Source: an uncultured bacterium
GTDB taxonomy: Bacteria > Patescibacteriota > Minisyncoccia > Phycocordibacterales > PALSA-1337
Assembly (NCBI GenBank): GCA_963848635.1
Contig: CAWKEA010000005.1
Location: forward strand, 15,275 to 79,274
DNA length: 64,000 nt
Reading direction: 5' to 3'
Notes under the pieces: generated by a model
The model's database searches: none
The model's input: the letters and a program-made list of their open reading frames with translations, nothing else
What the model was told of the DNA's origin: nothing
In this document: piece by piece, positions 6,372-57,688 of the stretch
Position numbering within the stretch: position 1 is the first letter of the stretch
Layout of the letters: each line of letters opens with the position of its first letter
Translations under genes and position numbers: made by a program

Positions 6372-6632
6372 ATGAAAAAAGACATACATCCAAAGGACTA
6401 CCGCAAGGTCATCTTCCACGACAACTCCAATGACGTGGATTTTCTGATTGCTTCAACTATAAAATCGACAGAAAAGGCCAAATGGCATGATGGCGTCGAA
6501 TATCCGATGGTCACCGTCGAAATCTCCTCGTCCTCGCACCCTTTCTATACCAACCAGGAAAAGATGATGGACGCCGCTGGACGCGTCGAAAAATTCAAAG
6601 CGCGCCAAGCAAAGGCCACAAAGAAGAAGTAA
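6372..6632 (+). CDS. rpmE: 50S ribosomal protein L31
   Basis: Starts [10 protein letters not shown] and continues ..HPFYT..; canonical L31. The start is taken at the internal Met of the longer ORF. Confidence 0.85.
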
Positions 6633-6640
6633 ATAGATAG

Positions 6641-6706
6641 TAGAAATAGAAAATAGAATAATGCGAGCATGCTCGCACCCCTTCTATTTTCTGATTCTAT
6701 TTTCTA
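6641..6706. terminator. complex palindromic terminator-like structure after rpmE
   Basis: Perfect 14-bp palindrome gcgagcatgctcgc at 6664-6677. It is nested in longer arms: agaaatagaaaatagaa pairs with ttctattttctgattctattttct. Confidence 0.45.
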
Positions 6707-6717
6707 CTTCTATCTCT

Positions 6718-7695
6718 ATGAACTGGGAAGAACTCAAAAAAAATCACAAGACGGCGTTTCTGGCCGAGATGCACGACAAGCTCTTAAAAGACGAAAAAGA
6801 GGTTTTGGAAATGGCCAAGGATCCTGCAATGAAGGACATGGCTGAAGCTGATCTCAGGAGCCTTGCAGAGCAGAAAAAGAACGTCGAAGACCAGGTTCAG
6901 GCGATCCTCGATTCAGAAAAAGAAGAGATCGAAGTACCGAACGAGCTTATCTTGGAAGTGCGCGCCGGCGCGGGCGGCGAAGAAGCCGCATTGTTCGCCG
7001 AAAAGCTGGTGCAGATGTACAGGGCTTATGCGGTGACGAAAGGCTGGCAGACAAAGATCGTGGAAGAGTCGCGTAGTTCGCTCAAGGGCTACAAGGAGGC
7101 ATCTCTTGAAGTGAAAGGCAAAGGCGCATACGACGATCTTCGCTGGGAAACGGGCGTCCATCGCATACAGCGCGTGCCAGAAACGGAAAAATCCGGCCGT
7201 ATACATACGTCGACCGCGGCTGTGGCTATCTTGCCTATCCGTAAAAAGACAAAGCTCGTCATTCCGCCGGCCGATCTTGAGATGGAATTCTCTCGCGCCG
7301 GCGGCAAGGGCGGCCAGAACGTCAACAAAGTCGAGACGGCCGTGCGCCTCGTCCACAAACCAACTGGCCTTGACGTTCGCGTCACGGCGGAGCGTTCGCA
7401 GAGCGCTAACCGCGAGCGTGCAATGCAGATTTTGACCGCAAAGATCGAAGCTCGACAGGAGGAAGAGGCCGCCCTGAAATTCAGCGCCAACAAGAAAGCC
7501 CAGCTCGGCACTGGCGACCGCTCTGAAAAGATCCGTACGTATAACATTTTGCAGGACCGTATAACTGACCATCGCATAAAACAAAGCTGGCATAACATCG
7601 AGACGATCTTTGAGGGTGGGCTCGACCCGATCATCGACGCATTGCATGAATTCGAAAGGACAGGAAAAGTGGGGAATGAGGAAGGGGAGGAATGA
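6718..7695 (+). CDS. prfA: peptide chain release factor 1
   Basis: GGQ motif ([14 protein letters not shown]) and [13 protein letters not shown], which is RF1-type rather than the SPF motif of RF2. Confidence 0.85.
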
Positions 7696-15911: not shown

Positions 15912-16919
15912 TTATAGTTCTTTCGGTCTATAATCAACCGGTGCTTTCTTTAGCCAATCTTCCAGCTCTTGGCGAGATAGAAGGCCTTCTTGGGCGCCGA
16001 TATATTGCACGACCGAAGCAGAATTAATGGGAGCCCAGGCAAGAGCCTCGAGCGACGTTTTTCCGAGAGCGAGCGCGGCGACGAAAGTTGAAGAAAATGC
16101 GTCTCCCGCACCAGTGCGCTCATAAGGCGGTTTCGGATCGGGGTAGAGCGGCATGAGATATAACTTGCCCTGGTCGAAAAGATATGCACCATTTGGTCCA
16201 TCGGTGAGAAGCACTATTTTGGGACCGAGAGCCGCAAGCCGCTCGCACAGGTTTTTTATGTCACGACTGCCTTCTGACGCGCCGAGTATCCTCTGTGCCT
16301 CCTCGACATTCACTGCAAAGACCTCCGTACGCGCATAGATCCTTTTTAATTTTTCTATGCCAAGCTCCATCTGAAACGTTCCGGGCTGAAAAGCGAGCTT
16401 GACATCGCTATTTCTTTCAAGATACTTCGCGATTTCGTCATGAAAGGGTGCAGAGGATACCCCCATCGATGACAGATAGAGCCATTTCGGCGCGGAAAAT
16501 TTCGGCAGAGAATAATCGAAATCTTCATGTTTGACAAGGATCGTCCGTTCGGCTCCATACCAAAGGACGTAATGGTAGTTGGTTTTTTTGCCTTTTTGCT
16601 CGGCTATAAAATCCGTCGAGACTTCGTTCGATCGAAGGGTGCGCTCGCATTCCTTGCCGCGTTCGTCTTTGCCGACGTTCGTCACAAGCGCCGCCGGAAG
16701 CCCGAGCCGAGCCGCCGCCACAGCGGCATTTGCCGCGTTGCCGACGCCTGCGATGACTGTATCGAATTCAAATGGGATCTTGTCGCCGAATTTCATGCAT
16801 ATCTCGCAGTCCTTGTCGTCAAGCCTGCAATTGACGTGAGCATCTTTTAATTTGACGAACGCGTCGATGACGACATCGCCTATAGCGATAAAATCGCTTT
16901 TTTTCTTGAAAATAGACAT
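15912..16919 (-). CDS. PfkB-family carbohydrate/nucleoside kinase
   Basis: N-terminal GDVVID and a C-terminal GAGDAF anion-hole motif typical of ribokinase-like kinases. Confidence 0.8.
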   Translation of the reverse strand: MSIFKKKSDFIAIGDVVIDAFVKLKDAHVNCRLDDKDCEICMKFGDKIPFEFDTVIAGVGNAANAAVAAARLGLPAALVTNVGKDERGKECERTLRSNEVSTDFIAEQKGKKTNYHYVLWYGAERTILVKHEDFDYSLPKFSAPKWLYLSSMGVSSAPFHDEIAKYLERNSDVKLAFQPGTFQMELGIEKLKRIYARTEVFAVNVEEAQRILGASEGSRDIKNLCERLAALGPKIVLLTDGPNGAYLFDQGKLYLMPLYPDPKPPYERTGAGDAFSSTFVAALALGKTSLEALAWAPINSASVVQYIGAQEGLLSRQELEDWLKKAPVDYRPKEL

Positions 16920-24271: not shown

Positions 24272-27200
24272 ATGAAAACGATCGACCCTATTCTTGGTTT
24301 TGACAGAATTAATCTTATCGGAACTAAAAAAGCACGGTGGAGTACGATCGCACTATTCACGTTCATGTTTTTGGTGGGAGGTTTTCTTTTTGATATCAAT
24401 GGGGCCCAAGCGGCCACGAGTATATATTATTCAGTTGGTTCCAGCAATACTACCGATTACAAGACTGGCTCTCCCACAATTTCCATCGATGGAAGTGGCA
24501 ATGCAACATTTTCAGTCGCCCAGACAAATAATTCGATGGGTGTCGGCGATGTTATCAATTATAACGGCCAACAAGCCTATGTCACAGCCAAGACATCGAC
24601 CTCTATTTGGACAGTCGAAACTGCCATTGGCGCTTTGCCTCCGGCAACATCACCCGTACCTGTAACATCGATTACGCATGTTTTTAGTACTCTCAAAAGC
24701 GCACTGGGCGATGGGATTGCAGGCAATGTCACATCATCAAATTTCCTCAATACCTCCGACCTCGTAGCTAACAACTATGTCCTTAACGTTTCGCTTTATA
24801 ATGACACAGGAACACCAGAGACTGGAGATGGTAATATGACAATTGGAGGTTTTACGACGAGCGCCATCAACCATATATACATATACACTCCAACATCGAC
24901 AACCACCCAAGTGAACGCTAGCCAGCGACATAAAGGTGTATTTAATACTGCGATTGGCTATGCGCTTCAGGTCCCGGTCAATGCATATATTCTGACTATC
25001 ACCAATCCATATGTGACGATCGATGGCGTTCAAATAAATAATACCAACGGTCGCGGGTCGCTTTCATTGAACAACAATACTACTCTATCCAATGACATCA
25101 TTTTGGGTTCTGGGGATTATACACTCATATATGCCAGAGTGAATGACGTCGTGATGTATAATAATGTGATACAAGGCCCCAATACTATCGCCATTGATGC
25201 GGAGACAGCAGGTCAAACTGACTGGATATACAACAACACTTTTTATAACGTAGGCACAGCTATAGCGCTCAGCAATTGCAGTTTTGGTACGCAAATCAAA
25301 TTGATAAACAATATTTTTGCGTCAACAACTGCTCCCATGTCAGGTGCAGGCACCTGTGCGGCAGCGGGTTCAGATTATAACTCTACCGACGCAAGCTCAT
25401 TGGATTATTCTGTGACAGGAGGAGGCAATGTTCATGACCGCGTCAATCAGACATTTAATTTTTATGATCTTGCGAATAGCGATTTCGATCTGACGATATC
25501 AGATACAGGCGCCCTTGACCTCGGTACATCATCGCCATCGAATGATCCGGTGGTTCCATTTTCAACAGATATCTTAGGCACCAATCGTCCACAAGGGCCT
25601 GCATGGGATATCGGCGCGTTCGAGTACTTGCCATCGACATATGCAACCACTCCACCAGGTCTTTCCGGCGGTTCACCGGGTGGACAAATAGCCTACGGCA
25701 CAGCATCCCTTACTGTTTCCGTTAACACTAATGAGAATGCCACTTGCAAGTATGATGTTGTGGCTGGCACAGCGTACGCGTCTATGCCATACACATTCAC
25801 CAGTACCGGCGGAACGACTCACAGTTCAGCAATTTCTGGTCTACAAAATGGTCACGTATACAACTATTATGTCCGATGCCAAGACGCTTCTGGCAACACT
25901 AACATCAATGATTATGTGATTTCGTTCGAAGTGAATCAGGGCGTCGACGGTATCGTCTATGCTACGAGCTGTTCAAAGGAGGATACTAACTATGCCATGT
26001 CATTCGTCAATGCCGGCGACACGCTCAAGATCCCTGCGGGTGTTTGCGGCGGATACTCGTCATCCTTTGGTTTGGGGATATACAAAGCCATAACAGTTCA
26101 AGGAGCTGGAGAAGGGCAAACCATCATTGAAATAGCCTCGACTACGTCTGGAACATATTTTAATGGTGCCATCATACCTATTTATGCAGCTGCTACTGTC
26201 AGAGATTTGACCATCGAGACTGATACTTCTGGAAATAGCGGAACAGCCTTTACCGTAAATGCCAGCGGTTTTCGTATCACCAATGTCCAATATATTGACC
26301 AGACTCCCGCAGACACTGGTTATTTCGTCGGAGTCAGATCGGGCGTATATGGTCTTATCGATCACGATAGCGTAACTGGTGGAGCGGGTAACGATGAGCT
26401 TATTGTCGTCTACGGCCCTACAGACTCTTGGCAGACGCCGAATACCATGGGTAAATCTGAAGCACTTTATATCGAGGACTCTACGTTCAACAATAGCGGA
26501 TATGTTACTGATTGCAACTCAAATAGCCGATGTGTGGTTCGCCATAATGTCATCACTGGGCCTATAAAAGTAGACGGTCACGGCAAGGCAAGCGATACGC
26601 CTCCACGTGGCGTGAGACAATACGAGACATATGACAATACATGGACAAGCAGTGCGACCGCGTGGGCCGCAATAGAGATGCGAGGCGGTACGGGTATTAT
26701 ATTTGGTAATAAAGTGACGAATCAATCGCCTGGTGCAAATGCAGGATGGTTCTTTCTCACTGATTATGCGTACGGCGCGGCATGGCCAAACTTTGGTAGC
26801 GTATATCAATGTCTTAATAATTATCCCGTAGATGATCAGATCGGTGTCGGCGAAGACGCCAAGGTAGCCGCTAGCGAGCCATACTATATCTGGGGCAATA
26901 CTTTTGGTGGTTCTGCCTGGACGAGATCATTCAAGGCGATTCCTCCCACAAGTGTCAGCGGTTGTTCGGTGACGTTCACTGAAAGTCAAGTTATACAGTC
27001 TAACCGTGATTTTTACGCTGATGCAGGTTTTGATACGAATACTGGTTTGACCAGCGGTCCATTCTCATCTATTCCTTCGACGTGTACGATAGGATTTGGT
27101 TACTGGGCTACCGATCGAGGAGGGGACTGGGATGCATCTATTGGGACATCGAGCGCATCGAACGATGGCAGTCTGTATAAATGCACATCTACTAATACAT

Positions 27201-29425
27201 GGACTGATTCATATACGCCCTATGCATATCCGGATTACCTTACTGCTACTTCGACCACAGGAACTGGCCTTGTCGATATAGGAGCAGGGGCAAGAATGTT
27301 CGGCAATGGCATGTTTTATGGCCTCGCGACGTCGTCTGCATCAGGCGTATTTGCGAATATAGCAGTTTTACCAGCCATCAGCACTCCAGATGTCTGGGTT
27401 GATCTGTCGATATCGGCTTGGAATAAAACCGGTACAAGAGAAAAAACATGGACAGAAAGCTCTTGGAGCATGGGAACTACATCATCAAACCACACAATCG
27501 GGGATCTTGCCAGTAATACTGCGTACAAGATCACAATAGATGGCATGATTGCTTCAACCACCACAGCCGGTCCTGATTGCATTTCAGGCATCTGTACCTC
27601 GGATTCCTCTGGAAAGATATATTTCAACTATTCGGGAGGATATTCAACGCATACATTTGACGTATCGCCTTATGTTAACGGATCAATCACACTGTCCACA
27701 CTCCTTACCCCCGCTTTCTCTAGTATCACCGTTACAAGCGTCACAGCCTCAAGCACTATCACTGCAGGTGGCGGAGCTTCATCGACTGTAGAAGGTTTTA
27801 ACTACGGGACTACAAGCGCATATGGCCTAACTGCTTCCACAACAGGCACTTTCGGCATCGGTAATTTCACTCAAAATATAACAGGATTAGCGTGTAATAC
27901 TCCATATCATGTCCAGGCATTTTCCATTAATTCTGCGGGGGTTGGCATCTCATCTGATGCGACGTTCACTACGAGCGCGTGTGCAGTCACTTATACTCTT
28001 TCGTACACAGCAGGCAGTAATGGAACGCTCTCAGGCTCATCGACTCAGGTCGTACCGGGAAACGCAAACGGTACAGCTGTTACTGCACTACCGAACTCAG
28101 GATACTACTTTGTTAATTGGTCAGATGGTTCAACAACAAATCCTCGCAGTGATAGCAACGTCATTGCCAATGTGGCAGTCACGGCCAATTTTTCCTTGAT
28201 AGCGACCGTTCCGGTTCTTTCAACCCTCGCCGCGAGCGGCGTTTCCGCATCGAACGCCACTCTGAACGCGCATATTCTATCGACAGGCGGAGCTAACGCA
28301 ACGCAGTCTGGATTCGCATATGGCACAGTATCAGATCTTTCAACAGTAATCGCTACGACAACCCTAGGAGCTCAAATAGGTCCCGCAACCTTCAACCAAA
28401 CCTTTACCGACCTCACTCCTAACCTCACCTATTATTTCCGCGCATACGCAGTGAACTCTGCGGGAACGACGATGGGCTCAATCCTTTCCTTTATCACAAA
28501 CAACAATTCAGTATATGCCGACGTGGGAGGCACTGTCACCGGCCTTGCAGGCACTCTCGTGCTCCAAGACAACTCTACTGACAATCTTTCGCTTACTTCG
28601 AATGGATCGTTTAGCTTTGCCACTCCTCTTGTCAATAATTCCTCGTATAGCGCCACTGTTCTCACTCAACCATCTGGACAAACATGCTCCGTATCAAACG
28701 GATCCGGAACAGTCTCGGGGATCGCTGTGACAGGGATCACTGTTGTCTGTGCAGATAATCAGGTTACTAATCCAATTGTATATTCAAATGGCGGTGGCGG
28801 TGGGGGTGGCGGTGGCGGCGGAAGCGTCTCTCCAACAGTCCTTTTGCCGATTCTTGCTACAAGTTCCACCGCAAAGACATATATCGATTCGTTTATCACT
28901 CCGACTTATGCCGGTGCAATAGGGAATAATGTCCGATCCCTCCAGAAATTCCTTATCGCACAGGGATTGCTTGATCCTTTTGACGTAACAGGATTCTTCG
29001 GGCCATTGACCAAGGCCGCCGTTATCAAGTTCCAGATTAAAAATAGAATTATCGCTTCCGCTTTAAGTCCCGGCGCTGGGGCAGTGGGACCGAGGACTAT
29101 TGCGGCGATCAATTCGCTCATTTCGAGCACTGCTCTTGTTGCAACGACGACACCGCCTCAAGCCAGCGTTTCTTCCATAAGATTAATATTCAACGCAAAT
29201 CTGTCCTTGGGTTCAATCGGAGCAGAAGTTAAAGCACTCCAGGAATACCTCAATGCTAAAGGCTACAATGTCGCTTATACAGGGGTTGGTTCGCCAGGAA
29301 AGGAAACTACCGAGTTTGGATATGCGACACGAGCAGCGCTCATCAGATTCCAGAATGCGCACGGAATTTCTGCCTCAGGAGATTTTGGACCGATAACAAG
29401 AGCGTATATAAAAAATTTCGGATAA
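24272..29425 (+). CDS. giant cell-surface protein (1717 aa): N-terminal TM/signal, right-handed beta-helix-like region, Fn3/Ig-like repeats, poly-Gly linker, two C-terminal peptidoglycan-binding repeats
   Basis: N-terminal hydrophobic segment; NxxN/NN-rich beta-helix-like repeats (NNTFYNVGTAIALSNC, IINNIFAS); several 90-100 aa T/S-rich Ig-like modules; an 11-residue Gly run at about 28790-28825; two PG_binding_1-like repeats at the C-terminus (..LQKFLIAQGLL....GFFGPLTKAAVIKFQ and ..LQEYLNAKGY....FGYATRAALIRFQ). Confidence 0.8.
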   Translation: MKTIDPILGFDRINLIGTKKARWSTIALFTFMFLVGGFLFDINGAQAATSIYYSVGSSNTTDYKTGSPTISIDGSGNATFSVAQTNNSMGVGDVINYNGQQAYVTAKTSTSIWTVETAIGALPPATSPVPVTSITHVFSTLKSALGDGIAGNVTSSNFLNTSDLVANNYVLNVSLYNDTGTPETGDGNMTIGGFTTSAINHIYIYTPTSTTTQVNASQRHKGVFNTAIGYALQVPVNAYILTITNPYVTIDGVQINNTNGRGSLSLNNNTTLSNDIILGSGDYTLIYARVNDVVMYNNVIQGPNTIAIDAETAGQTDWIYNNTFYNVGTAIALSNCSFGTQIKLINNIFASTTAPMSGAGTCAAAGSDYNSTDASSLDYSVTGGGNVHDRVNQTFNFYDLANSDFDLTISDTGALDLGTSSPSNDPVVPFSTDILGTNRPQGPAWDIGAFEYLPSTYATTPPGLSGGSPGGQIAYGTASLTVSVNTNENATCKYDVVAGTAYASMPYTFTSTGGTTHSSAISGLQNGHVYNYYVRCQDASGNTNINDYVISFEVNQGVDGIVYATSCSKEDTNYAMSFVNAGDTLKIPAGVCGGYSSSFGLGIYKAITVQGAGEGQTIIEIASTTSGTYFNGAIIPIYAAATVRDLTIETDTSGNSGTAFTVNASGFRITNVQYIDQTPADTGYFVGVRSGVYGLIDHDSVTGGAGNDELIVVYGPTDSWQTPNTMGKSEALYIEDSTFNNSGYVTDCNSNSRCVVRHNVITGPIKVDGHGKASDTPPRGVRQYETYDNTWTSSATAWAAIEMRGGTGIIFGNKVTNQSPGANAGWFFLTDYAYGAAWPNFGSVYQCLNNYPVDDQIGVGEDAKVAASEPYYIWGNTFGGSAWTRSFKAIPPTSVSGCSVTFTESQVIQSNRDFYADAGFDTNTGLTSGPFSSIPSTCTIGFGYWATDRGGDWDASIGTSSASNDGSLYKCTSTNTWTDSYTPYAYPDYLTATSTTGTGLVDIGAGARMFGNGMFYGLATSSASGVFANIAVLPAISTPDVWVDLSISAWNKTGTREKTWTESSWSMGTTSSNHTIGDLASNTAYKITIDGMIASTTTAGPDCISGICTSDSSGKIYFNYSGGYSTHTFDVSPYVNGSITLSTLLTPAFSSITVTSVTASSTITAGGGASSTVEGFNYGTTSAYGLTASTTGTFGIGNFTQNITGLACNTPYHVQAFSINSAGVGISSDATFTTSACAVTYTLSYTAGSNGTLSGSSTQVVPGNANGTAVTALPNSGYYFVNWSDGSTTNPRSDSNVIANVAVTANFSLIATVPVLSTLAASGVSASNATLNAHILSTGGANATQSGFAYGTVSDLSTVIATTTLGAQIGPATFNQTFTDLTPNLTYYFRAYAVNSAGTTMGSILSFITNNNSVYADVGGTVTGLAGTLVLQDNSTDNLSLTSNGSFSFATPLVNNSSYSATVLTQPSGQTCSVSNGSGTVSGIAVTGITVVCADNQVTNPIVYSNGGGGGGGGGGGSVSPTVLLPILATSSTAKTYIDSFITPTYAGAIGNNVRSLQKFLIAQGLLDPFDVTGFFGPLTKAAVIKFQIKNRIIASALSPGAGAVGPRTIAAINSLISSTALVATTTPPQASVSSIRLIFNANLSLGSIGAEVKALQEYLNAKGYNVAYTGVGSPGKETTEFGYATRAALIRFQNAHGISASGDFGPITRAYIKNFG

Positions 29426-35085: not shown

Positions 35086-38313
<3,228 letters not shown>

Positions 38314-41300: not shown

Positions 41301-42037
41301 CCACTGTCGACGGCATGGTTTCCGAGATCCGCGACATGAACAAAGAGAAAGTGCTCGTCGTCATCCCTGATATAGGCCATATCGCTCCTACAAAATCCAA
41401 GTCAAAGAAAAAAACGTCTGAGGATGGAAAGACCGAGGCAGTCGAATACCACTTCCACTATCGCCGCACGCCGTTCGTCAAAGTCGGCGACAAGGTAAAG
41501 AAGGGCGAGCTTTTGACTGACGGATCGGCTGATATCGACGAGATATTCGCCAATGCCGGATCAGATCGGGCGAAGGAATACGTCATCAGCGAAGTCGGAA
41601 AGATCTATGAGCTTCAAGGCGAGACTGTGTCGCGCAAGCATATCGAAGTCATCGTCAAGCAGATGTTCAGCAGAAAGCGCATCGCCGACGCAGGCGACAC
41701 GAATCTGGCGGACGGCATGGTCGTCGATGATCTTCAGCTGGCCGAAGAGAACAAGAAAGCGAAATCCGCCGACGGTTCCTCAGCCACCGCGGAGCCTATC
41801 GCTCTCGGCATCACCGAAGTATCGCTGTCGCGCAAGAGCTTCCTCTCCGCGGCATCATTCCAGCACACGACTCGCGTCCTCATCGGCAATGCCGTCCGAG
41901 GCGCCGAGGACGATCTGCAAGGCCTCATGGAGAATGTCATCATCGGCCGTCTCATTCCCGCCGGCACCGGTTACCCTGGCTCTCCAAAAGCGGCCATGAT
42001 TGAGAAAATCCGCCCGAAGGAGACGATCACTGAATAA
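38324..42037 (+). CDS. rpoC: DNA-directed RNA polymerase beta' subunit
   Basis: Zn finger CYCGKYRGIRYKGIICEKCGVE, the catalytic NADFDGDQMAVHVP, trigger-loop and C-terminal motifs. Intact 1237-aa ORF. Confidence 0.9.
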   Translation: MTTTLNNKKTTMEIRDFDIVKLSLASPEKIVEWSYGEVTKPETINYRTQRSEKSGLFDEKIFGPDRDYECYCGKYRGIRYKGIICEKCGVELTRSIVRRDRMGHIELSVPVSHIWFLRSMPSRIGLIMGLPTADLEKVIYFAGYIVSKVYEDEKEKFLKDLDSEYKSKVKGANDDKTKEALKELLVNARREIESIVEGFVMDEAVFHKYSMKYGSVFEAGIGAEAIYTILKNIDLKKLKANLEKELESAGSLEHEKLSRRLSLVKSMIKSNSRPEWMFLVRIPVIPPALRPMVALDGGRFATSDVNDLYRRVINRNNRLVKLKEIHAPDVILRNEKRILQEAVDALIDSSIRHGSANAAQSAFAQKHALKSLSDNIKSKRGLFRQNLLGKRVDYSGRSVIVVGPELHLNQCGLPKHMALELFRPFIIKGLLQRELAYNIRGAGRLIDDQAKEVWEILEEVIKDKYVLLNRAPTLHRLGIQAFKPILIEGNAIQVHPLVCTAFNADFDGDQMAVHVPLGIEAQAEAREIMASDKNILKPGNGDPTIISKLLDIVLGCFWITKTVEKGTGEGKVFESPADACLAREYGIVDYRSKIKVMPDDSQKYAQFEGKLFETTVGRILFNNILPADYPFINKEINKDKLSGIIDDLITARGVGEIPAILDKVKAFGFYYATYSGTTWGIDDIVIPKGKNEVIGKAKVQSELIGKQYDEGLLTEEERVRKNIELWHKAKSDIEKLIPGSLDKMGPVYDMITSKARGSLSQIVQMAGMKGLIASTSGEIIEFPILSCSKEGLTPIEYFITTHGARKGLTDTALNTAKAGYLTRKLFVVAQDVMISEDDCGTKESIIIKKQSASGIEIPLSKNIRGRVLAEDIESTDGKVMFKKGHLLSKGEAQAVEAAGITSVHVRSPLSCKTIRGVCAQCYGLDLGKNEMIALGEAVGTVAAQAIGEPGTQLTMRTFHSGGAASAAGDITAGLPRVEEIFEKRSPRNPAVVATVDGMVSEIRDMNKEKVLVVIPDIGHIAPTKSKSKKKTSEDGKTEAVEYHFHYRRTPFVKVGDKVKKGELLTDGSADIDEIFANAGSDRAKEYVISEVGKIYELQGETVSRKHIEVIVKQMFSRKRIADAGDTNLADGMVVDDLQLAEENKKAKSADGSSATAEPIALGITEVSLSRKSFLSAASFQHTTRVLIGNAVRGAEDDLQGLMENVIIGRLIPAGTGYPGSPKAAMIEKIRPKETITE

Positions 42038-42099
42038 TGATCGACTTTCATTAATTAAAGTAAAACAAGGCCTGTCAGCAGGCAGGAAAAGAAAGACAA

Positions 42100-42127
42100 A
42101 AAGCGGCACGTCGAAGCCGCTTTTTTG
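42100..42127 (+). terminator. rho-independent terminator after rpoC
   Basis: aaaaagcggc-acgtcgaa-gccgcttttttg is a 6-bp GC stem plus a T-tract. Confidence 0.6.
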
Positions 42128-42204
42128 CTTATATATATTTACGACACAAAATTTTTGTCAGCACGAGTTTACAATATCATCGTGCTTGATATAATTATGC
42201 CACG

Positions 42205-42852
42205 ATGAACACTCCCTTTGAAGAAAAAATGGCAACTCGGCTAGAGTCGATGACGTCGCATCTTGAATCGATCACTCGATCGATCGGTAAACTTGCCACA
42301 AAAGACGAACTAAACATCGCAGTTTCCAAGCTATCAACAAAGGACGAGCTGAGTATCGCAGTTTCCAAGCTATCAACAAAGGACGAGCTGAGTATCGCTG
42401 TTTCAAAACTTGCAACAAAAGATGAACTAGATACAGCTGTTTCTAAACTTGCAACAAAAGATGAACTGAGTATCGCTGTTTCTAAACTTGCAACAAAAGA
42501 TGAATTAGATACAGCTGTTTCCAAGCTATCAACAAAGGACGAGCTGACCATCGCTGTTTCCAATCTTGCAACGAAGGATGAGATGACGGATACCATTAAT
42601 GATGCAGTCGACAGTTTAGCCGGAGCCGTAAAGAAAGGCTTCGATGAAGTCCATGAAAAATTCACAGAAATTGACGAGAGGTTCACAAAAGTAGACGAGA
42701 GGTTCGATTCTTTGGAGAGAAAAGTCGATCGTATGAACGATAGCTTCACCAACCAGCTCGATTACTTCCAGCTCTACTATCCGACACGAAAAGAGTTCGT
42801 GGATCTTGATTCTAGAATGACGAGAGCCGAGAGAAAATTAAAAATACGGTAG
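42205..42852 (+). CDS. hypothetical protein with nine tandem 11-residue repeats (LATKDELSIAVSK-type) and a C-terminal coiled coil
   Basis: The translation shows (K)L(A/S)TKDEL(S/D/N/T)(I/T)AVS repeated nine times with period 11, followed by ERFTKVDERFDSLERKVDRM heptads. Confidence 0.6.
   Translation: MNTPFEEKMATRLESMTSHLESITRSIGKLATKDELNIAVSKLSTKDELSIAVSKLSTKDELSIAVSKLATKDELDTAVSKLATKDELSIAVSKLATKDELDTAVSKLSTKDELTIAVSNLATKDEMTDTINDAVDSLAGAVKKGFDEVHEKFTEIDERFTKVDERFDSLERKVDRMNDSFTNQLDYFQLYYPTRKEFVDLDSRMTRAERKLKIR
42287..42583 (+). repeat. 33-bp tandem repeat, about 9 copies in two alternating sequence variants, coding
   Basis: Units such as gtttccaagctatcaacaaaggacgagctgagtatcgca and gtttctaaacttgcaacaaaagatgaactagatacagct alternate head to tail. 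Confidence 0.85.
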
Positions 42853-42860
42853 ATATTGAT

Positions 42861-44276
42861 TTAATCCTGCTTTTTCCTCAAAACGCTTCCATCGCTCGTA
42901 TCCTTGACCTCGTAGCCGCGGGATTCGATCTCGTGGCGCAAGGCGTCTGATTTTTGCCAATCTTTCGCGGCTCTAGCTTCATCGCGAGCTTCCAGAAGAG
43001 CGAAAACATCTGGAGGCAATGATTCGATGCTCGCCGGAGAATCATCGAGCTTTTCCACAACCGATAAACCAAGACCGAGGACGCGATCAAAATCGAGCAA
43101 CGTAGCGCGCTTGTCGGCAGTGGAGAGATGATGATCTTTTATCAATTGCCAGACCAAGGCGATGGCTTCAGGCATGTTTAAGTCGTCATTTATGGCTCTA
43201 CGGAACTTTTCCTGGTAATTTCCATCAATGACTCCTGCTTTGTCTGATTTAAAGCCGATAAAAGCCTCGGCGAGGCGTATAAATGCGTTTTGCGACGCAA
43301 GGACTGCCTCCAACGAGAAATTGACCAGAGAGCGATAATGAGCAGTCAAAAGCCAATATCTATATGCGAGCGGCGAGACGCGGTTCTCTTCGAGGTCGGC
43401 CAGTTTGAGGAAATTATTCTTTGATTTCGACATCTTCTCGTCGCGCACGTTCATAAATCCGCCATGGATCCAATAGTGAACGTACGGCTTGTCTGTCGCA
43501 GACTGGCTCTGGGCGATCTCGTTCGTGTGATGAGGAAAAATGAGGTCGGTGGCGCCGGTGTGGATGTCGATCGTCTCGCCAAGCGCCTTCATTGCCATAA
43601 CCGAACACTCAATATGCCAGCCAGGTCGTCCAGCACCGAATGGGGCGGCCCAAGACGGTTCGGTGTCTTCAACCGCCGGCTTTTCTTCCTTGCTCTCCTC
43701 CTTATCACTAAACTTCCACAGTGCGAAATCTTGCGGCGACTCCTTGTCGTATTCGTCGTTTGCGATGCGGCTTTTTCTCTCTGCCGCAAGCTTCAGATGT
43801 GCAAGCTCTCCGTATCCTTTTACTTTTTCGATGCTCATATATACTCCGTCATCCGCTTTATACGCAAAGCCCTTCTCGATCAGCTTTCCGATGAGCGCGA
43901 TCATGCCATCGATATTCTCCGTTGCGCGCAAGAGGATATTGGGCGTCAAGATGTTCAACGTATGTATGTCATTGAGAAAGACCTTTTCGTAGTGCCGAGT
44001 AAGTTCACCCAAGGGCTTCTTCTCGGCCTGCGACCTGCGGATCGTCTTGTCATCAACGTCTGTGATATTCATCACTTGCGTCACCTCATAATCGTTGTAT
44101 TCAAAGACTCGTCGGACGAGGTCATCCATTATGAACGTGCGCAGATTTCCAATATGCGCCGTATCGTAGACAGTCGGCCCGCAATTATATATGCCGACCT
44201 TGCCAGCTCTGATCGGCTTGAACAGATCTTTTTTGCCGGAGAGAGTGTTGTAGAGATGCATTTCAGAATTGTTCAT
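42861..44276 (-). CDS. cysS: cysteine--tRNA ligase
   Basis: Class I HIGN (CGPTVYDTAHIGN) and KMSKS motifs with CysRS-specific regions. The true start may be the Met five codons in. Confidence 0.9.
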   Translation of the reverse strand: MNNSEMHLYNTLSGKKDLFKPIRAGKVGIYNCGPTVYDTAHIGNLRTFIMDDLVRRVFEYNDYEVTQVMNITDVDDKTIRRSQAEKKPLGELTRHYEKVFLNDIHTLNILTPNILLRATENIDGMIALIGKLIEKGFAYKADDGVYMSIEKVKGYGELAHLKLAAERKSRIANDEYDKESPQDFALWKFSDKEESKEEKPAVEDTEPSWAAPFGAGRPGWHIECSVMAMKALGETIDIHTGATDLIFPHHTNEIAQSQSATDKPYVHYWIHGGFMNVRDEKMSKSKNNFLKLADLEENRVSPLAYRYWLLTAHYRSLVNFSLEAVLASQNAFIRLAEAFIGFKSDKAGVIDGNYQEKFRRAINDDLNMPEAIALVWQLIKDHHLSTADKRATLLDFDRVLGLGLSVVEKLDDSPASIESLPPDVFALLEARDEARAAKDWQKSDALRHEIESRGYEVKDTSDGSVLRKKQD

Positions 44277-50134: not shown

Positions 50135-50980
50135 TTATGTTACGGCTTCCGCAAACGCATTTGCACCGCTCAAAGTTGTTCGCACAGTGTTAAACAAAAA
50201 CTTACCTCCTTTTGTAAGAGTCTTTGCGGCGTATTTGGTTCCTTCCCAACCAACTTTCGCGGCACCTGCGATACTTGGATCTCTGGCAAATCTATAGCCA
50301 GAACCCACAAAATCTCCGAGAGGCTTACCAAAAACGGTTTTTAATGTTTCGACACCGCTTTTCTTGAAACTTTCCATTGAATTGTCGAATTTTAATTTTG
50401 ATTCAAAACGGCGCTCATGTTTTTCAAACATATCATGTTCAAGTAGTGCTTGGCCTATATCCCCTCCCGAGTCTGGATCAAGAAGAGCTGACATTATATC
50501 GGGATTATTGGCTACCTTTGGATCATTGCGGAATTTTTCCAATAAAGCATCAAAGTTTTTTACCCCCTCGGCTGAATCTCTTAGTACAGCTTGTTTCGGC
50601 TTCTTTTTGTAATTTTGCTGATAATATTGCTCGACTGCTTGTTGATCTTGGGGTGTCGTGTTTACAAATTGTTTTGGTTGAGTCAAGGCTCTTTGTTTAG
50701 CGGTTTTCTTTAACATATCGATGCCCGCACCACCGGTAAGTTCTCTCAATGCGGCTTCAAACGATTTCATGCCTCCAGATCCTCGTTCAAATGCTTTGCG
50801 TGAACCGACCTCGTTTTTGGCGTATTGAAGGTACTCCATAAAAACCCTTTTTTGAGCTTGATCGGGCGGTATATTGTATTTTTGGGCATAAGCTTGAATC
50901 TTCTCTTTAAATTGAGAACCCTCGTCCGTTCCGATGATTTTTTTGCCCAAATCCTTTATGGCTTCAAACGATTTACTCAT
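50135..50980 (-). CDS. hypothetical protein
   Basis: A K/Q-rich soluble ORF of about 280 aa inside the AT-rich cassette. No family recognised. Confidence 0.45.
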   Translation of the reverse strand: MSKSFEAIKDLGKKIIGTDEGSQFKEKIQAYAQKYNIPPDQAQKRVFMEYLQYAKNEVGSRKAFERGSGGMKSFEAALRELTGGAGIDMLKKTAKQRALTQPKQFVNTTPQDQQAVEQYYQQNYKKKPKQAVLRDSAEGVKNFDALLEKFRNDPKVANNPDIMSALLDPDSGGDIGQALLEHDMFEKHERRFESKLKFDNSMESFKKSGVETLKTVFGKPLGDFVGSGYRFARDPSIAGAAKVGWEGTKYAAKTLTKGGKFLFNTVRTTLSGANAFAEAVT

Positions 50981-51094
50981 AGGGTAAATTATAGCTACTT
51001 TAGAGATATTAGCAACAATAAGCACGCTGGTCGTTTTAGATTATAAATGTTAATATTTGTAGTATTAATAAGTAGTGAAAATATATTTAATAAT

Positions 51095-54758: not shown

Positions 54759-55898
54759 TTAGGCTTCATGTTCAAGTGACAAGTCAAGTATGACTTCGGC
54801 TATCTTTGTGGCCGCATCCGGCTTGGCGAATCCAGCGGCGCTTTGGCTCATGAGCTCGCGGATCCGCGGGTTAGCCATGACCCTGTCTATTTCGGCCACG
54901 AGGATGTGAGAAGTGAGGTTATTCTCCTCGATGACGATGGCCGCGCCTGTTTTTGCGTAATCAAAGGCATTCGCAGTCTGGTCATGGCTGATCGATTCGG
55001 GCAAAGGGATGATGATTGATGGTTTCTTCCATAAAGCTATCTCGAATATGCTCGATCCCGCTCTCGAGACCACGATGTCAGCGGCGCCTGCCGACATGCG
55101 CATGGCCAGATCGTTCAAGTAATCAAAAGGATGATATCGGTAGCCGTACGCATTATCCTTTAGGATGGCTTTGGCGGTCTCCTTGACATCTTCGAAATTC
55201 TTGCGGCCGGTCTGATGGATGATCTGGTATCTTTTTATGAGCTCGGGCAGAGCGTCGAGTATCGTATCGTTTATCGATTGCGCGCCTTGAGATCCGCCGA
55301 TGACGAGGATGACAGGCGTTGCTTCCTCGAGGTTGAGGAATTCATGAGCGCCGTTCGTGAGCGGCGCGGCGACTTCTTTTCTGACAGGATTTCCTGTCAG
55401 AGCAACGACTGATTTTTCTGAGGCTTTCTTGAAATAATCAGCGGCTGAGGGGTACGAAACGGCTATCCTCTTTGCGAATTTCCCTGCCCAAGCATTGACT
55501 CGTCCAGGGCTCGAATCGGATTCATGGATGACGACCGGAATGCGAAGGATCCTGGCCGCGACCATGGCAGGAAAGCTCTCATAACCTCCCTTACCGAAGA
55601 CAATGTCGGGATATATGTTGTACATCTTTATGATGGCTAGAAATATGCCGCTTGCAGTCTTGAAGGAATCCGTGAAATTAAGCAAAGAAAAATATCGGCG
55701 GATCTTTCCAGCTGGCACATAGACGAACTCTATCTGGTGATCGAAGAGTGCCCGCGGATTATAGCGCTGTGCGGCCATGAAATACAGCTTCGGCTTGAGC
55801 AGGCGCTTCTCCACCACTTTGTCCTCGATGGCTTCTGCTACGGCTATGATCGGATAGAAATGCCCGCCTGTGCCGCCGCCGGTAAATAAGATTTTCAT
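54759..55898 (-). CDS. murG: undecaprenyldiphospho-muramoylpentapeptide beta-N-acetylglucosaminyltransferase
   Basis: MKILFTGGGTGGHFYPIIAVAE N-terminus and a GT28 C-terminal domain. Confidence 0.9.
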   Translation of the reverse strand: MKILFTGGGTGGHFYPIIAVAEAIEDKVVEKRLLKPKLYFMAAQRYNPRALFDHQIEFVYVPAGKIRRYFSLLNFTDSFKTASGIFLAIIKMYNIYPDIVFGKGGYESFPAMVAARILRIPVVIHESDSSPGRVNAWAGKFAKRIAVSYPSAADYFKKASEKSVVALTGNPVRKEVAAPLTNGAHEFLNLEEATPVILVIGGSQGAQSINDTILDALPELIKRYQIIHQTGRKNFEDVKETAKAILKDNAYGYRYHPFDYLNDLAMRMSAGAADIVVSRAGSSIFEIALWKKPSIIIPLPESISHDQTANAFDYAKTGAAIVIEENNLTSHILVAEIDRVMANPRIRELMSQSAAGFAKPDAATKIAEVILDLSLEHEA

Positions 55899-55940: not shown

Positions 55941-57033
55941 TTACTTGGCATGTCTCGACACGTTAGCTACGATGCCGGAAGCGGACATAGCCAATATGAG
56001 GGCGGTCCCGCCATGTGAGACAAAAAGCAATGGGATGCCGAGACAATGGCACGAGACCTATCTCGGAAGCCATATTCATGAATGACTCGACGATCACCAG
56101 GATAGCGATGCCCGATACGAGCAGGCCGCCAAAGGCATCGGGCGCCCGCGCGGCTATGCGCAGACACATTATGGCGAAAAAAATGAACAATATGACGAGC
56201 ACGGTAGTGCCGGCAAAACCGAATTCCTCGCCGACGACCGCAAAAATAGAGTCGCCTACAGGCTCCGGCAGATAGCCGAATTTCTGTATGCTCTGGCCGT
56301 ATCCGCGTCCGAAAAGCCCTCCTGATCCAACGGCAATAAGAGACTGTTGAAGCTGGTAGCCTGCTCCCTGCGGATCGCTAGAAGGCGCGATATACGTCAT
56401 GATGCGTTCGCGAGCATACGGCCGGAACAATGCTACGAGGCCAACGACTGCGATGATCGCTAGGATGGCAACGCTGATGTGCCGCACTTTTCCGCCGGCT
56501 ATGATGAGCTGGCCAAGGCCTGTAACGAATATGATGACAAAGGTATCAGTATCGCGTTGAGACAAAAGCAACGCTCCTGTGACAGCCATAAGTATAAGGA
56601 ACGGCAAAAGACCTGACTTGAAATCCTTGATCCTGTCTTTTTTATGGGCCAGCCACGCGGCAAAATATATGATGAATGCGATCTTCAGGAATTCGGAAGG
56701 TTGGAACGTGACTGATCCGATATATATCCATCTCGACGCCCCGCCGTGAAAGAGAGATAGGTCAGGTATGAAAAGGACCAGATTGAGCAGTATCGCCGCC
56801 GCGAACAGATAAAATGCATAACGGCGGAAAAATGTATAGTTGATCTTTGAAAAGACGTAAAATGCCGCGAGACCGATGATGAGGCCGACCGCTTGGGTGA
56901 ACAAGACGGATTTTGTCGTCGGGCCGGTTTCCGTCAAGAGACCGAGCGATGCGGAAGAAAAGATGAAAAAACCGGCGAACGCGAGCACAAGCACGAGAAT
57001 CAAGTACGATTTTTCAATTGGAGCACGGGACAT
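55941..57033 (-). CDS. ftsW: FtsW/RodA/SpoVE-family peptidoglycan glycosyltransferase; 1-bp frameshift near 56040 breaks the C-terminus
   Basis: The frame of ORF 55963-57033 ends ..MASEIGLVPLS then RHPIAFCLTW... The conserved C-terminus GIPLLFVSHGGTALILAMSASGIVANVSRHAK* lies in the +1 frame, ending at 55941. An extra C at about 56040 separates the two. Confidence 0.8.
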
Positions 57034-57115: not shown

Positions 57116-57688
57116 CTAATCAACCTGATCTGGTTTCTCTGAAACCCCGTTCGTCTGCTTGAATGATTCGATGTCTTTTCTCACGGCTTCATATTCCGGC
57201 AGATCGGCGGCTTTCGATATTCCGAGATGAGATAGGAGGTCAAGAGTCGTCTTATAGAGAAAGCTCCGTGCATCGTCCGGATTGTCCGCCCGCTCAACAA
57301 GGCCTCGGATGAGAAGCGACCGCACTATGAACTGAGAATTGACGCCGCGGATGTAGTCGATGTCCGCCCGCGATATGGGACCTTGATACAACACGATGGA
57401 GAGAGTCTCCAGGCCTGCTTTGCCGAGATCTCTCGTCAATTCATCCTTTGCAAGCTGTTCGATGAGATGCGAAAGCTCTTTTGCAGTGCCGAGCATGATA
57501 TCCTCGTCCGTCTGGACGAGCGTCACTCCCCTGCCGACAAGGCTTTTTTCGAGCTCGGCAACGCCGGCTCTGACTTCAGGCTCGGATATCTTCGTCGAAT
57601 CAGTCGAAAGCAGAGAAGCGAGCTTTTTTATGCTGACAGGCTCAGCTTTCCAAAAAAGGATAGCTTCTATTTTCGCGCTTAGGTTCAT
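57116..57688 (-). CDS. scpB: segregation and condensation protein B
   Basis: The N-terminal IEAILFWKAEPVSIKKLA matches the ScpB winged helix. About 190 aa, downstream of scpA. Confidence 0.8.
   Translation of the reverse strand: MNLSAKIEAILFWKAEPVSIKKLASLLSTDSTKISEPEVRAGVAELEKSLVGRGVTLVQTDEDIMLGTAKELSHLIEQLAKDELTRDLGKAGLETLSIVLYQGPISRADIDYIRGVNSQFIVRSLLIRGLVERADNPDDARSFLYKTTLDLLSHLGISKAADLPEYEAVRKDIESFKQTNGVSEKPDQVD

Follow-up and report, generated by a model that had tools for sequence, protein, structure and literature searches.

Alpha/beta coiled coils, as described by Hartmann et al. (2016, eLife, PMC4786415), are trimeric coiled coils in which two or six residues are inserted into the heptads. 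Three residues exit the helix and form a triangular layer with those of the other chains (the beta-layer), the chain path is displaced by 120 degrees, and helical structure resumes at position e. Beta-layers may follow position c (in a nonad) or position g (in a hexad), and in Tcar0761 and the DUF3782 and DUF1640 proteins their consensus is [aliphatic]-A-T-K-[polar]-[D/E]. The proteins with this element that the paper treats are homotrimers, the SLH domain excepted. Crystals of the T6 construct, in which heptad adaptors enclose MATKDD, revealed a trimer and its beta-layer; the authors state that an array of hexads alone was impossible to construct. The sections of the paper on these constructs report solved nonad arrays and single hexads and describe no regular 13-residue array. 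Here we analyse a gene with a tandem array of 13-residue units that carry this consensus. It is located at positions 42205-42852 (+ strand) of a 64,000-nucleotide stretch, hereafter the window, of contig CAWKEA010000005.1 from an uncultured member of the Patescibacteriota.

Tandem units and their predicted structure

The open reading frame is intact from ATG to TAG (215 codons), and 167 nt lie between it and the rpoC stop codon, at 42037. Its position downstream of rpoC and its strong in-frame tandem repeat had been reported in a preliminary description of this DNA, and both were confirmed. The gene is divided as follows.

42205..42852, + strand, including the stop codon: coding sequence of a 215-residue protein, predicted to be an all-helical coiled coil (open reading frame list, 124 homologues, near-identical syntenic orthologue)
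42205..42288, + strand: N-terminal segment, residues 1-28, with heptads LESMTSH and LESITRS, then IGK leading nonad-like into the first putative beta-layer (AlphaFold2, periodicity)
42289..42600, + strand: tandem array of eight 39-bp, 13-residue units K-L-[A/S]-T-K-D-E-L-x-x-A-V-S (Tandem Repeats Finder, units in register, motif and register rule of PMC4786415, AlphaFold2 breaks)
42601..42774, + strand: conserved core, residues 133-190, with D-x-L-A-G-A-V-K-K-G-F-D-E-V, F-x-x-[I/V/L]-[D/E]-x-x heptads and F-T-N-Q-L-D-Y (family alignment)
42775..42786, + strand: Y-Y-P-T, residues 191-194, predicted helix break (AlphaFold2)
42787..42849, + strand: C-terminal helix, residues 195-215, RKEFVDLDSRMTRAERKLKIR (AlphaFold2 helix 195-212)

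Tandem Repeats Finder gave a period of 39 bp for the array (7.6 copies, 80% matches, 42289-42586), with extra rows at periods 78 and 117 and none at 33 bp. When residues 21-140 of the protein were matched against themselves, a lag of 13 gave a score of 0.67, compared to 0.02 for a lag of 11. In register, the array consists of seven good units (42289-42561) and one degenerate unit, NLATKDEMTDTIN (42562-42600), 104 residues altogether. The nine 11-residue units of 33 bp that had been proposed earlier were thus not recovered. The consensus given with that proposal, L-A/S-T-K-D-E-L-x-x-A-V-S-K, itself has 13 positions; the 11 was therefore a miscount. Peptides of the predicted + strand product include FTNQLDYFQLYYPTR and GFDEVHEK.

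The units occur in two codon variants, AAACTTGCAACAAAAGATGAA and AAGCTATCAACAAAGGACGAG, arranged in the order A-S-S-A-A-A-S. Within a variant, the DNA of the units agrees at 34-37 of its 39 positions, compared to 26-32 of 39 between variants. Of the two alternating, near-identical DNA variants described earlier, the existence of two variants stands, whereas the alternation does not. Among the seven units, 122 of the 175 differences fall at third codon positions; counted by codon in the sense frame, 101 are synonymous and 39 nonsynonymous. Because the differences are mostly synonymous, the peptide has been maintained: the repeat peptide is under selection, while its DNA has drifted. Exact repeats within the array measure 44, 31, 31, and 30 bp.

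Hydrophobicity power over residues 29-123 was 100 at a period of 4.33 (13/3), 3.2 at 3.6, and 1.3 at 3.667 (11/3). Since the power lies at 4.33 and not near 3.6, a continuous amphipathic alpha-helix, 11/3 or other, cannot run through the repeats. We used AlphaFold2 with a 21-sequence alignment to model the monomer (mean predicted local distance difference test score, pLDDT, 74.5). The repeats were modeled as helices of 10-11 residues (33-43, 46-56, 59-69, 72-81, 85-94, 98-107, and 111-120), and DSSP placed breaks on L-[A/S]-T in all eight units (29-32, 44-45, 57-58, 70-71, 82-84, 95-97, 108-110, and 121-123). Beyond the array, the model has one helix at 124-190 (pLDDT ~90), a break at Y-Y-P-T (191-194), and a helix at 195-212.

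The beta-layer consensus is matched by every unit, as 8/8 read L-[A/S]-T-K-D-E. Under the register rule set out in the relevant passages of PMC4786415, L-A/S-T would form the beta-layer, K-D-E would occupy positions e, f, and g, and L-x-x-A-V-S-K positions a to g. The 13 residues are then a hexad plus a heptad (6 + 7), in which positions a and d are taken by Leu and Ala, respectively. The first unit is entered from I-G-K, at positions a, b, and c, as in a nonad. In close family members the motifs are spaced by 13 residues (22 times) or 9 residues (19 times); in more distant matches the spacings are 13 (265 times), 9 (51), and 17 (30). The matches were picked by their similarity to a query with a 13-mer array, and within this biased sample of metagenomic proteins the counts suggest that LATKDEL motifs are most often spaced by 13 residues.

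Long predicted helices with periods in the heptad range flank the array on both sides. The N-terminal segment was modeled as a helix at 5-28 and has a hydrophobic period of 3.63 (residues 1-28). The helix at 124-190 has a period of 3.57 and carries the heptads FDEVHEK, FTEIDER, FTKVDER, and FDSLERK; the C-terminal heptad coiled coil of the preliminary description, with F-x-x-[I/V/L]-[D/E]-x-x heptads in one predicted helix, therefore holds. In the family alignment, the A, A, K, K, G, E, N, Q, and L columns of the core do not vary, and the core includes a 21-bp tandem repeat (Tandem Repeats Finder period 21) at 42661-42705. The motif x-P-[T/S]-[K/R]-x-[E/D]-[F/Y] is kept in homologues; Y-P-T followed by R-K-E-F is likely a ninth, variant beta-layer or an N-cap. 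In the C-terminal helix the L, D, R, and E columns are conserved. The protein has no signal peptide, as had been noted, and no membrane segment (maximum 19-residue Kyte-Doolittle mean 0.68).

By analogy with the described trimers, we lean slightly towards a parallel homotrimeric alpha/beta coiled-coil rod, soluble and of strain-variable length; this leaning applies to the structural class. The likeness appears to be one of structural motif and spacing, a way of working, rather than homology. Each unit would consist of a six-residue beta-layer element, L-A/S-T-K-D-E, and one heptad, L-x-x-A-V-S-K. Three chains would assemble in parallel into a stiff rod with eight beta-layers 13 residues apart, and heptad segments would flank the array, the conserved C-terminal one probably driving assembly and partner binding. 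We estimate that each unit would lengthen the rod by ~2 nm. The most likely role, taken as the default, would be that of a length-variable structural spacer or scaffold.

Array length between strains and the protein family

A scan with a degenerate DNA pattern for the N-terminus retrieved metagenome contig Ga0182030_10253084 (L010); the second match (L009) was an unrelated chance match and was discarded. L010 has the same synteny as the window: the 3' end of rpoC, the coiled-coil gene, and cysS converging on it. Its protein has 163 residues and 3 + 1 units, compared to 215 residues and 7 + 1 units in the window, a difference of exactly 4 x 13 residues. The two loci compare as follows.

rpoC 3' end: 93% identical
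Terminator, promoter, and first 84 coding nt: 1 mismatch in ~200 nt
3' part of the gene: 98.4% identical
cysS part: 97.7% identical

The two loci do not differ in the promoter, and both alleles are intact open reading frames. The end units correspond, unit 1 of L010 to unit 1 of the window (37/39) and unit 4 to unit 8 (38/39). Of the inner units, unit 2 of L010 corresponds to unit 7 (38/39), and unit 3 resembles a hybrid of window units 3 and 5. Because the end units match and the inner ones are reshuffled, more than one recombination or slippage event must separate the alleles. The exact 30-44 bp stretches would let slippage or unequal recombination add or remove whole units in frame. Copy-number variation among homologues, anticipated in the preliminary description, was found both here (8 units in the window versus 4 in L010) and across the family (1-9 motif copies). 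A contingency locus in the strict sense was not: because the unit of 39 bp is a multiple of three, the result is in-frame variation of protein length, and expression is not switched on or off.

Codon differences between the window and L010 were also counted outside the array. There are 27 synonymous and 4 nonsynonymous differences in the 154 codons of the rpoC 3' end (41576-42037), 3 and 2 in the 125 codons of the non-repeat part of the gene, and 11 and 3 in 298 codons of cysS. Between 42038-42204 and L010 463-615 there is a 16-bp indel at ~42070-42085, and a small hairpin (GCCTGTCAGCAGGC) is missing from L010. The divergence is mosaic, pointing to a boundary of recombination directly downstream of rpoC.

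A search of 5.8 billion proteins returned 124 matches, the best at 65% identity. About 20 of them share the core D-D-L-A-G-A-V-K-K-G-F-D-E-V, the F-x-x-[I/V]-D-E-[K/R] heptads, and F-T-N-Q-L-D-Y, followed by Y-P-T-[K/R]-x-E-F and then L-D-x-R-x-K-K-V-E-K. Where the source of a homologue names an organism, it is Patescibacteria, Pacebacteria, or Paceibacteria. In a profile search of 1.84 billion representatives, E was under 1e-30 for 7 proteins and under 1e-10 for 68; the family is a small one. The GTDB species genomes contained only two distant relatives, both from Patescibacteria and both without LATK repeats. Viral contigs yielded no relative, and thus no sign that the gene came from a phage.

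Family members differ by whole units in three zones: the N-terminal heptads (whose number differs in P0003 and P0017), the LATK units, and the F-heptads. A subgroup (P0011, P0016, P0022, P0045, P0050, and P0055) has the same N-terminus and LATK units with another C-terminal module, ...SATKTDLYEAETRLG...DHGPRIRxLEK. No curated family in Pfam, NCBIfam, PHROGs, or PADLOC matched above its cut-off; below threshold there were only coiled-coil look-alikes (DUF1664, 26 bits against a cut-off of 34.6; XkdX, SbcC, DruC, and ZorA). Sequence searches of the PDB with the protein, the repeat region, and the family profile returned generic coiled coils (influenza HA2, E 0.003-0.04; Swallow; a SadA fusion), which we take as analogy and not homology. 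A Foldseek search of the monomer model against the PDB gave no match.

The family members (X) were found in the following gene contexts.

holB - X - frr: P0005, P0012
sigma-70 - X - mreB: P0004, P0014
X - pth: P0001, P0002 (lepB on the opposite strand upstream of P0001)
reverse transcriptase - X - MFS transporter: P0018
tgt - X - sugar kinase: distant members at L007, L008
X converging on cysS: window, L010, L023

The CysS encoded on L023 is 87% identical to that of the window, and the family member located after cysS (6470-6988, - strand) has the same promoter and N-terminus and a 9/13/9 LATK spacing. Its C-terminal module is the other one, SATKTDLYEAETRLG...DHGPRIRTLEK, which suggests exchange of modules within the family. 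On an 858-kb contig (CysS 81% identical), an unrelated 99-residue open reading frame occupies the position beside cysS, and a family member is located between holB and frr. At L013, a diversity-generating retroelement (bAvd and reverse transcriptase) adjoins one homologue. Its 98-nt variable and template repeats (1919-2016 and 2257-2354) are 82% identical, and its target is the C-terminus of a 1148-residue protein with a faint AAA_5 match. The homologue was rejected as the target of the retroelement, as the variable and template repeats lie in another gene. For the Patescibacteria, these results define a small, probably well-expressed, length-polymorphic protein family, and do not overturn current understanding.

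Upstream region and neighboring genes

The region between rpoC and the gene, the reverse strand of the gene, and corresponding sites on other contigs contain the following features.

42098..42125, no strand assigned: G+C-rich hairpin and T-run after rpoC, terminator-like, AAAAAGCGGCACGTCGAAGCCGCTTTTTT (terminator scan)
42143..42160, + strand: conserved upstream element GACACAAAA and A/T tract, ~45-60 nt before the predicted transcript start (upstream alignment)
42168..42195, + strand: sigma-70-type promoter, -35 TTTACA (42168-42173), 16-nt spacer, extended -10 TGATATAAT (42187-42195) (promoter scan)
42195..42752, - strand: antisense open reading frame of 185 residues, judged to be a non-coding by-product of the repeat (third-position overlap, length tracks array)
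L005 1279-1320, L016 1143-1184, and L023 6947-6988 (- strand): promoter translated as protein start (proteins P0001, P0008, and P0014)

The terminator-like hairpin separates rpoC from the coiled-coil gene and is identical in the close strain L010. The promoter matches the consensus at 11/12 positions and has TG before the -10 box, which ends 9 nt before the ATG. Over the 70 nt upstream of the gene, an alignment of seven loci from five gene contexts has ACACA invariant, and (G)AAGTTnAC as -35 and TTGnnATAnTT as extended -10 (near-)invariant; GAAGTTTACA and TTGnTATAAT are conserved at homologous loci. The distance from the end of the -10 box to the ATG is 7-9 nt. The element at 42143-42160 resembles an UP element or a regulator site, and within the window its motif is followed by a promoter at this site only. 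We predict an mRNA with little or no leader, and the near-consensus promoter directly before the start suggests strong expression from it.

No Shine-Dalgarno motif was found at the coiled-coil gene or at any of the 42 window open reading frames checked. In many of these, a TAnAAT box precedes the start codon by 6-9 nt (for example, 42861-44276, 15912-16919, 54759-55898, 55963-57033, and 57116-57688). The organism seems, as judged from these signals, to use leaderless mRNAs widely. We therefore rejected the leaderless layout as a peculiarity of the coiled-coil gene, with 0/42 window frames having a Shine-Dalgarno motif and many having a -10 box near the ATG. Several database proteins of the family start with 'MEVY...' or 'VEVY...', a translation of the promoter (ATG/GTG GAA GTT TAC; GAAGTTTACA...TATAAT); these starts are miscalled, the true start being the downstream ATG (MKP...). 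Our literature searches found no work on leaderless genes in Patescibacteria and, on Tcar0761 or DUF3782, none later than the 2016 paper.

The cysS gene (42861-44276) converges on the coiled-coil gene, and 8 nt (42853-42860) separate the two stop codons. Terminator-like hairpins for the pair are located only inside the partner gene, at 42935-42947 (+ strand) and 42249-42233 (- strand); because of this location, the two transcripts may overlap in antisense. No paralogue of the gene was found in the window, a weak DnaJ match being due to chance. Third-position G+C is 0.426 for the whole gene, compared to a window mean of 0.567 (standard deviation 0.074). A foreign origin was considered and rejected, since the low value stems from the array (0.34) and the remainder of the gene (0.51) is within one standard deviation of the mean.

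Three other observations concern the window. The rpoB gene is broken at 37730-37920 (open reading frames 35086-37833 and 37936-38313) by two 1-nt frameshifts ~180 nt apart: the conserved RpoB text switches frame after ...GVPSRMN, runs on as ...DGRTGEYFD, and then returns to the first frame. These are probably sequence or assembly indels and call for caution on the base-level accuracy of the window. A 1717-residue open reading frame at 24272-29425 (+ strand), with peptidoglycan-binding, InlB B-repeat-like, and fibronectin type III domains and a low third-position G+C of 0.43, probably encodes a large cell-surface protein. The 296-residue open reading frame at 50135-51025 (- strand) has no Pfam match and the lowest third-position G+C in the window (0.34).

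Alternative explanations and comparison with described systems

The broken helices of the model can be read in another way. T-K-D-E is a classical N-capping box, and the units could be short helices split by T-x-x-E capping boxes, without trimeric beta-layers, in a segmented, flexible monomer or dimer or a helix-turn-helix stack. The repeats would then serve as a flexible linker and not as a rigid rod. This main rival agrees with the AlphaFold2 monomer, which has only broken helices and no confident tertiary packing (predicted template modeling score, pTM, 0.29). Nevertheless, the six-residue consensus is complete in every unit, which goes beyond a cap alone, and the beta-layer rule calls for just such spacings of 9 and 13 and for heptads on either flank. 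As the proteins with this element in PMC4786415 are homotrimers save for the SLH domain, we regard separate capped helices as unlikely. Far less probable are the 11-residue 11/3 amphipathic helices of the preliminary description, binding lipids or surfaces in the manner of LEA proteins, apolipoproteins, or perilipins. The composition is highly charged, and a few family members have weak, sub-threshold Pfam matches to Apolipoprotein and Phasin (E ~1e-3 to 4e-4). The self-match values at lags 11 and 13 and the thirteen-residue period speak against these helices, as do the power at 3.667 (1.3 versus 100 at 4.33), the break of the helix at each L-[A/S]-T, every 13 residues, and the hydrophobic stripe of the C-terminal helix, which is narrow, limited to heptad positions a and d, and coiled-coil-like.

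Other alternatives concern the meaning of the array for the gene. It is a real, if tentative, possibility that its length results from neutral minisatellite drift in a tolerant coiled-coil segment, the length of the rod having no adaptive meaning and the array being no contingency device. Family members carry 1 to 9 motif copies, the units are only 67-95% identical (change is probably slow), and only two alleles were seen; however, the strong synonymous bias among units indicates that the peptide is maintained, and the end units are conserved between strains whereas the inner ones are reshuffled. Neutral drift is compatible with the structural explanation, as it concerns selection on length only. 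An on/off phase-variable contingency locus, with slippage switching expression, has very little to recommend it. The tandem repeat is within the coding region and its copy number differs between strains, but 39 bp = 3 x 13 preserves the frame, both alleles are intact, and no repeat was found in the promoter when the window and L010 were compared. The antisense frame as the real gene is the least probable of all. It remains open over 185 codons because third codon positions in one frame are also third positions in the other; read in antisense, the unit differences are 71 synonymous and 51 nonsynonymous, a weaker bias than the 101 to 39 of the sense frame. Its length tracks the array (133 residues in L010, 100 in L003, and 66 in L001), it misses the conserved C-terminal region, the homologues keep the + frame protein (45-72% identity), and the conserved promoter points at the + strand ATG.

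Several observations weigh against the trimeric rod or its variable length. The central Ala of the consensus is replaced by Ser in three units, and the model is only moderately confident in the repeats (pLDDT 61-78, pTM 0.29). The link to alpha/beta coiled coils is drawn from a short motif plus its spacing: the Tcar0761 constructs were not among the PDB sequence-search matches for this protein, the Pfam matches listed for it did not include PF12644 or PF07798 (DUF3782/DUF1640), and all of those listed stayed below their curated cut-offs. The C-terminal heptads, with Phe at a and Ile/Val at d, could suit other oligomers too, and the gene neighbors yield no functional clue. The copy numbers come from metagenome assemblies, and the window itself has the two 1-nt frameshifts in rpoB. 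A short-read contig of the same strain (L021 4410-4744, Logan run ERR10755936, with a 100% identical CysS) ends inside the array, in unit 7; the array breaks short-read assembly, and the count of eight comes from one assembly.

A bolder version of the trimeric rod, which we hold to be distinctly improbable, would make the array a natural, perfectly regular alpha/beta fibre with a 13-residue hexad-heptad period, acting as a strain-variable molecular ruler in the ultra-small Patescibacteria and encoded in a promoter-gene cassette, complete in itself, that differs between lineages in its location and its C-terminal module. A natural eight-fold beta-layer array with 13-residue spacing would offer a test case for a regular hexad-plus-heptad alpha/beta fibre. 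For annotation, the lesson is that counting 13 instead of 11 turns the prediction from a lipid-binding helix into a trimeric rod.

LEA proteins, apolipoproteins, and perilipins are charged, helical, and tandemly repeated, as is the window protein. Their period is 11, whereas here it is 13, with no hydrophobic periodicity of 3.67 residues. In-frame size variation of the variable number tandem repeat type is known from bacterial surface proteins, among them streptococcal Alp/Rib and mycoplasma Vlp/Vsa. As in these, whole units are gained or lost in frame and strains differ in length alleles; however, Alp/Rib and Vlp/Vsa are exported and have near-identical, often longer units, while the window protein has no export signal and units that are 67-95% identical.

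MPN010 (DUF16) of Mycoplasma pneumoniae (PDB 2BA2; treated in PMC4786415) is likewise small and soluble, has internal beta-layers, and comes from a reduced genome; it is trimeric. Hendecad segments occur in it, but a long tandem array does not, and no sequence relationship to the window protein was shown. DUF3782 (the N-terminal stalk of PD-(D/E)XK endonucleases) and DUF1640 (membrane-anchored and CCDC90-like) carry ATK[D/E][D/E]L motifs, often with 13/9 spacing, and DUF3782 proteins P0074 and P0080 and DUF1640 proteins P0024, P0033, and P0038 were matched through the repeats. The similarity is confined to the repeat; these proteins have a nuclease domain or a C-terminal membrane anchor, whereas the window protein has neither.

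The closest likeness in motif is to Tcar0761 of Thermosinus carboxydivorans (PDB 5APZ). As far as the passages on it in PMC4786415 go, the two proteins have the same motif (MATKDD there, L-A/S-T-K-D-E here), many times in tandem, with flanking heptad coiled coils and no enzymatic domain. No significant overall similarity was found between them; they come from different phyla and differ in the C-terminal core (AVKKGF...TNQLDY here). Tcar0761 has 14 nonads, IANMATKDD, with the beta-layer after c, whereas the window protein has a 13-residue spacing that would place the beta-layer after g. In this respect one window unit has the make-up of the T6 construct (GCN4-N16V adaptors), as given in the same passages, with one hexad in a heptad background. 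T6 is a single engineered insertion, whereas the window protein is a natural eight-fold array.

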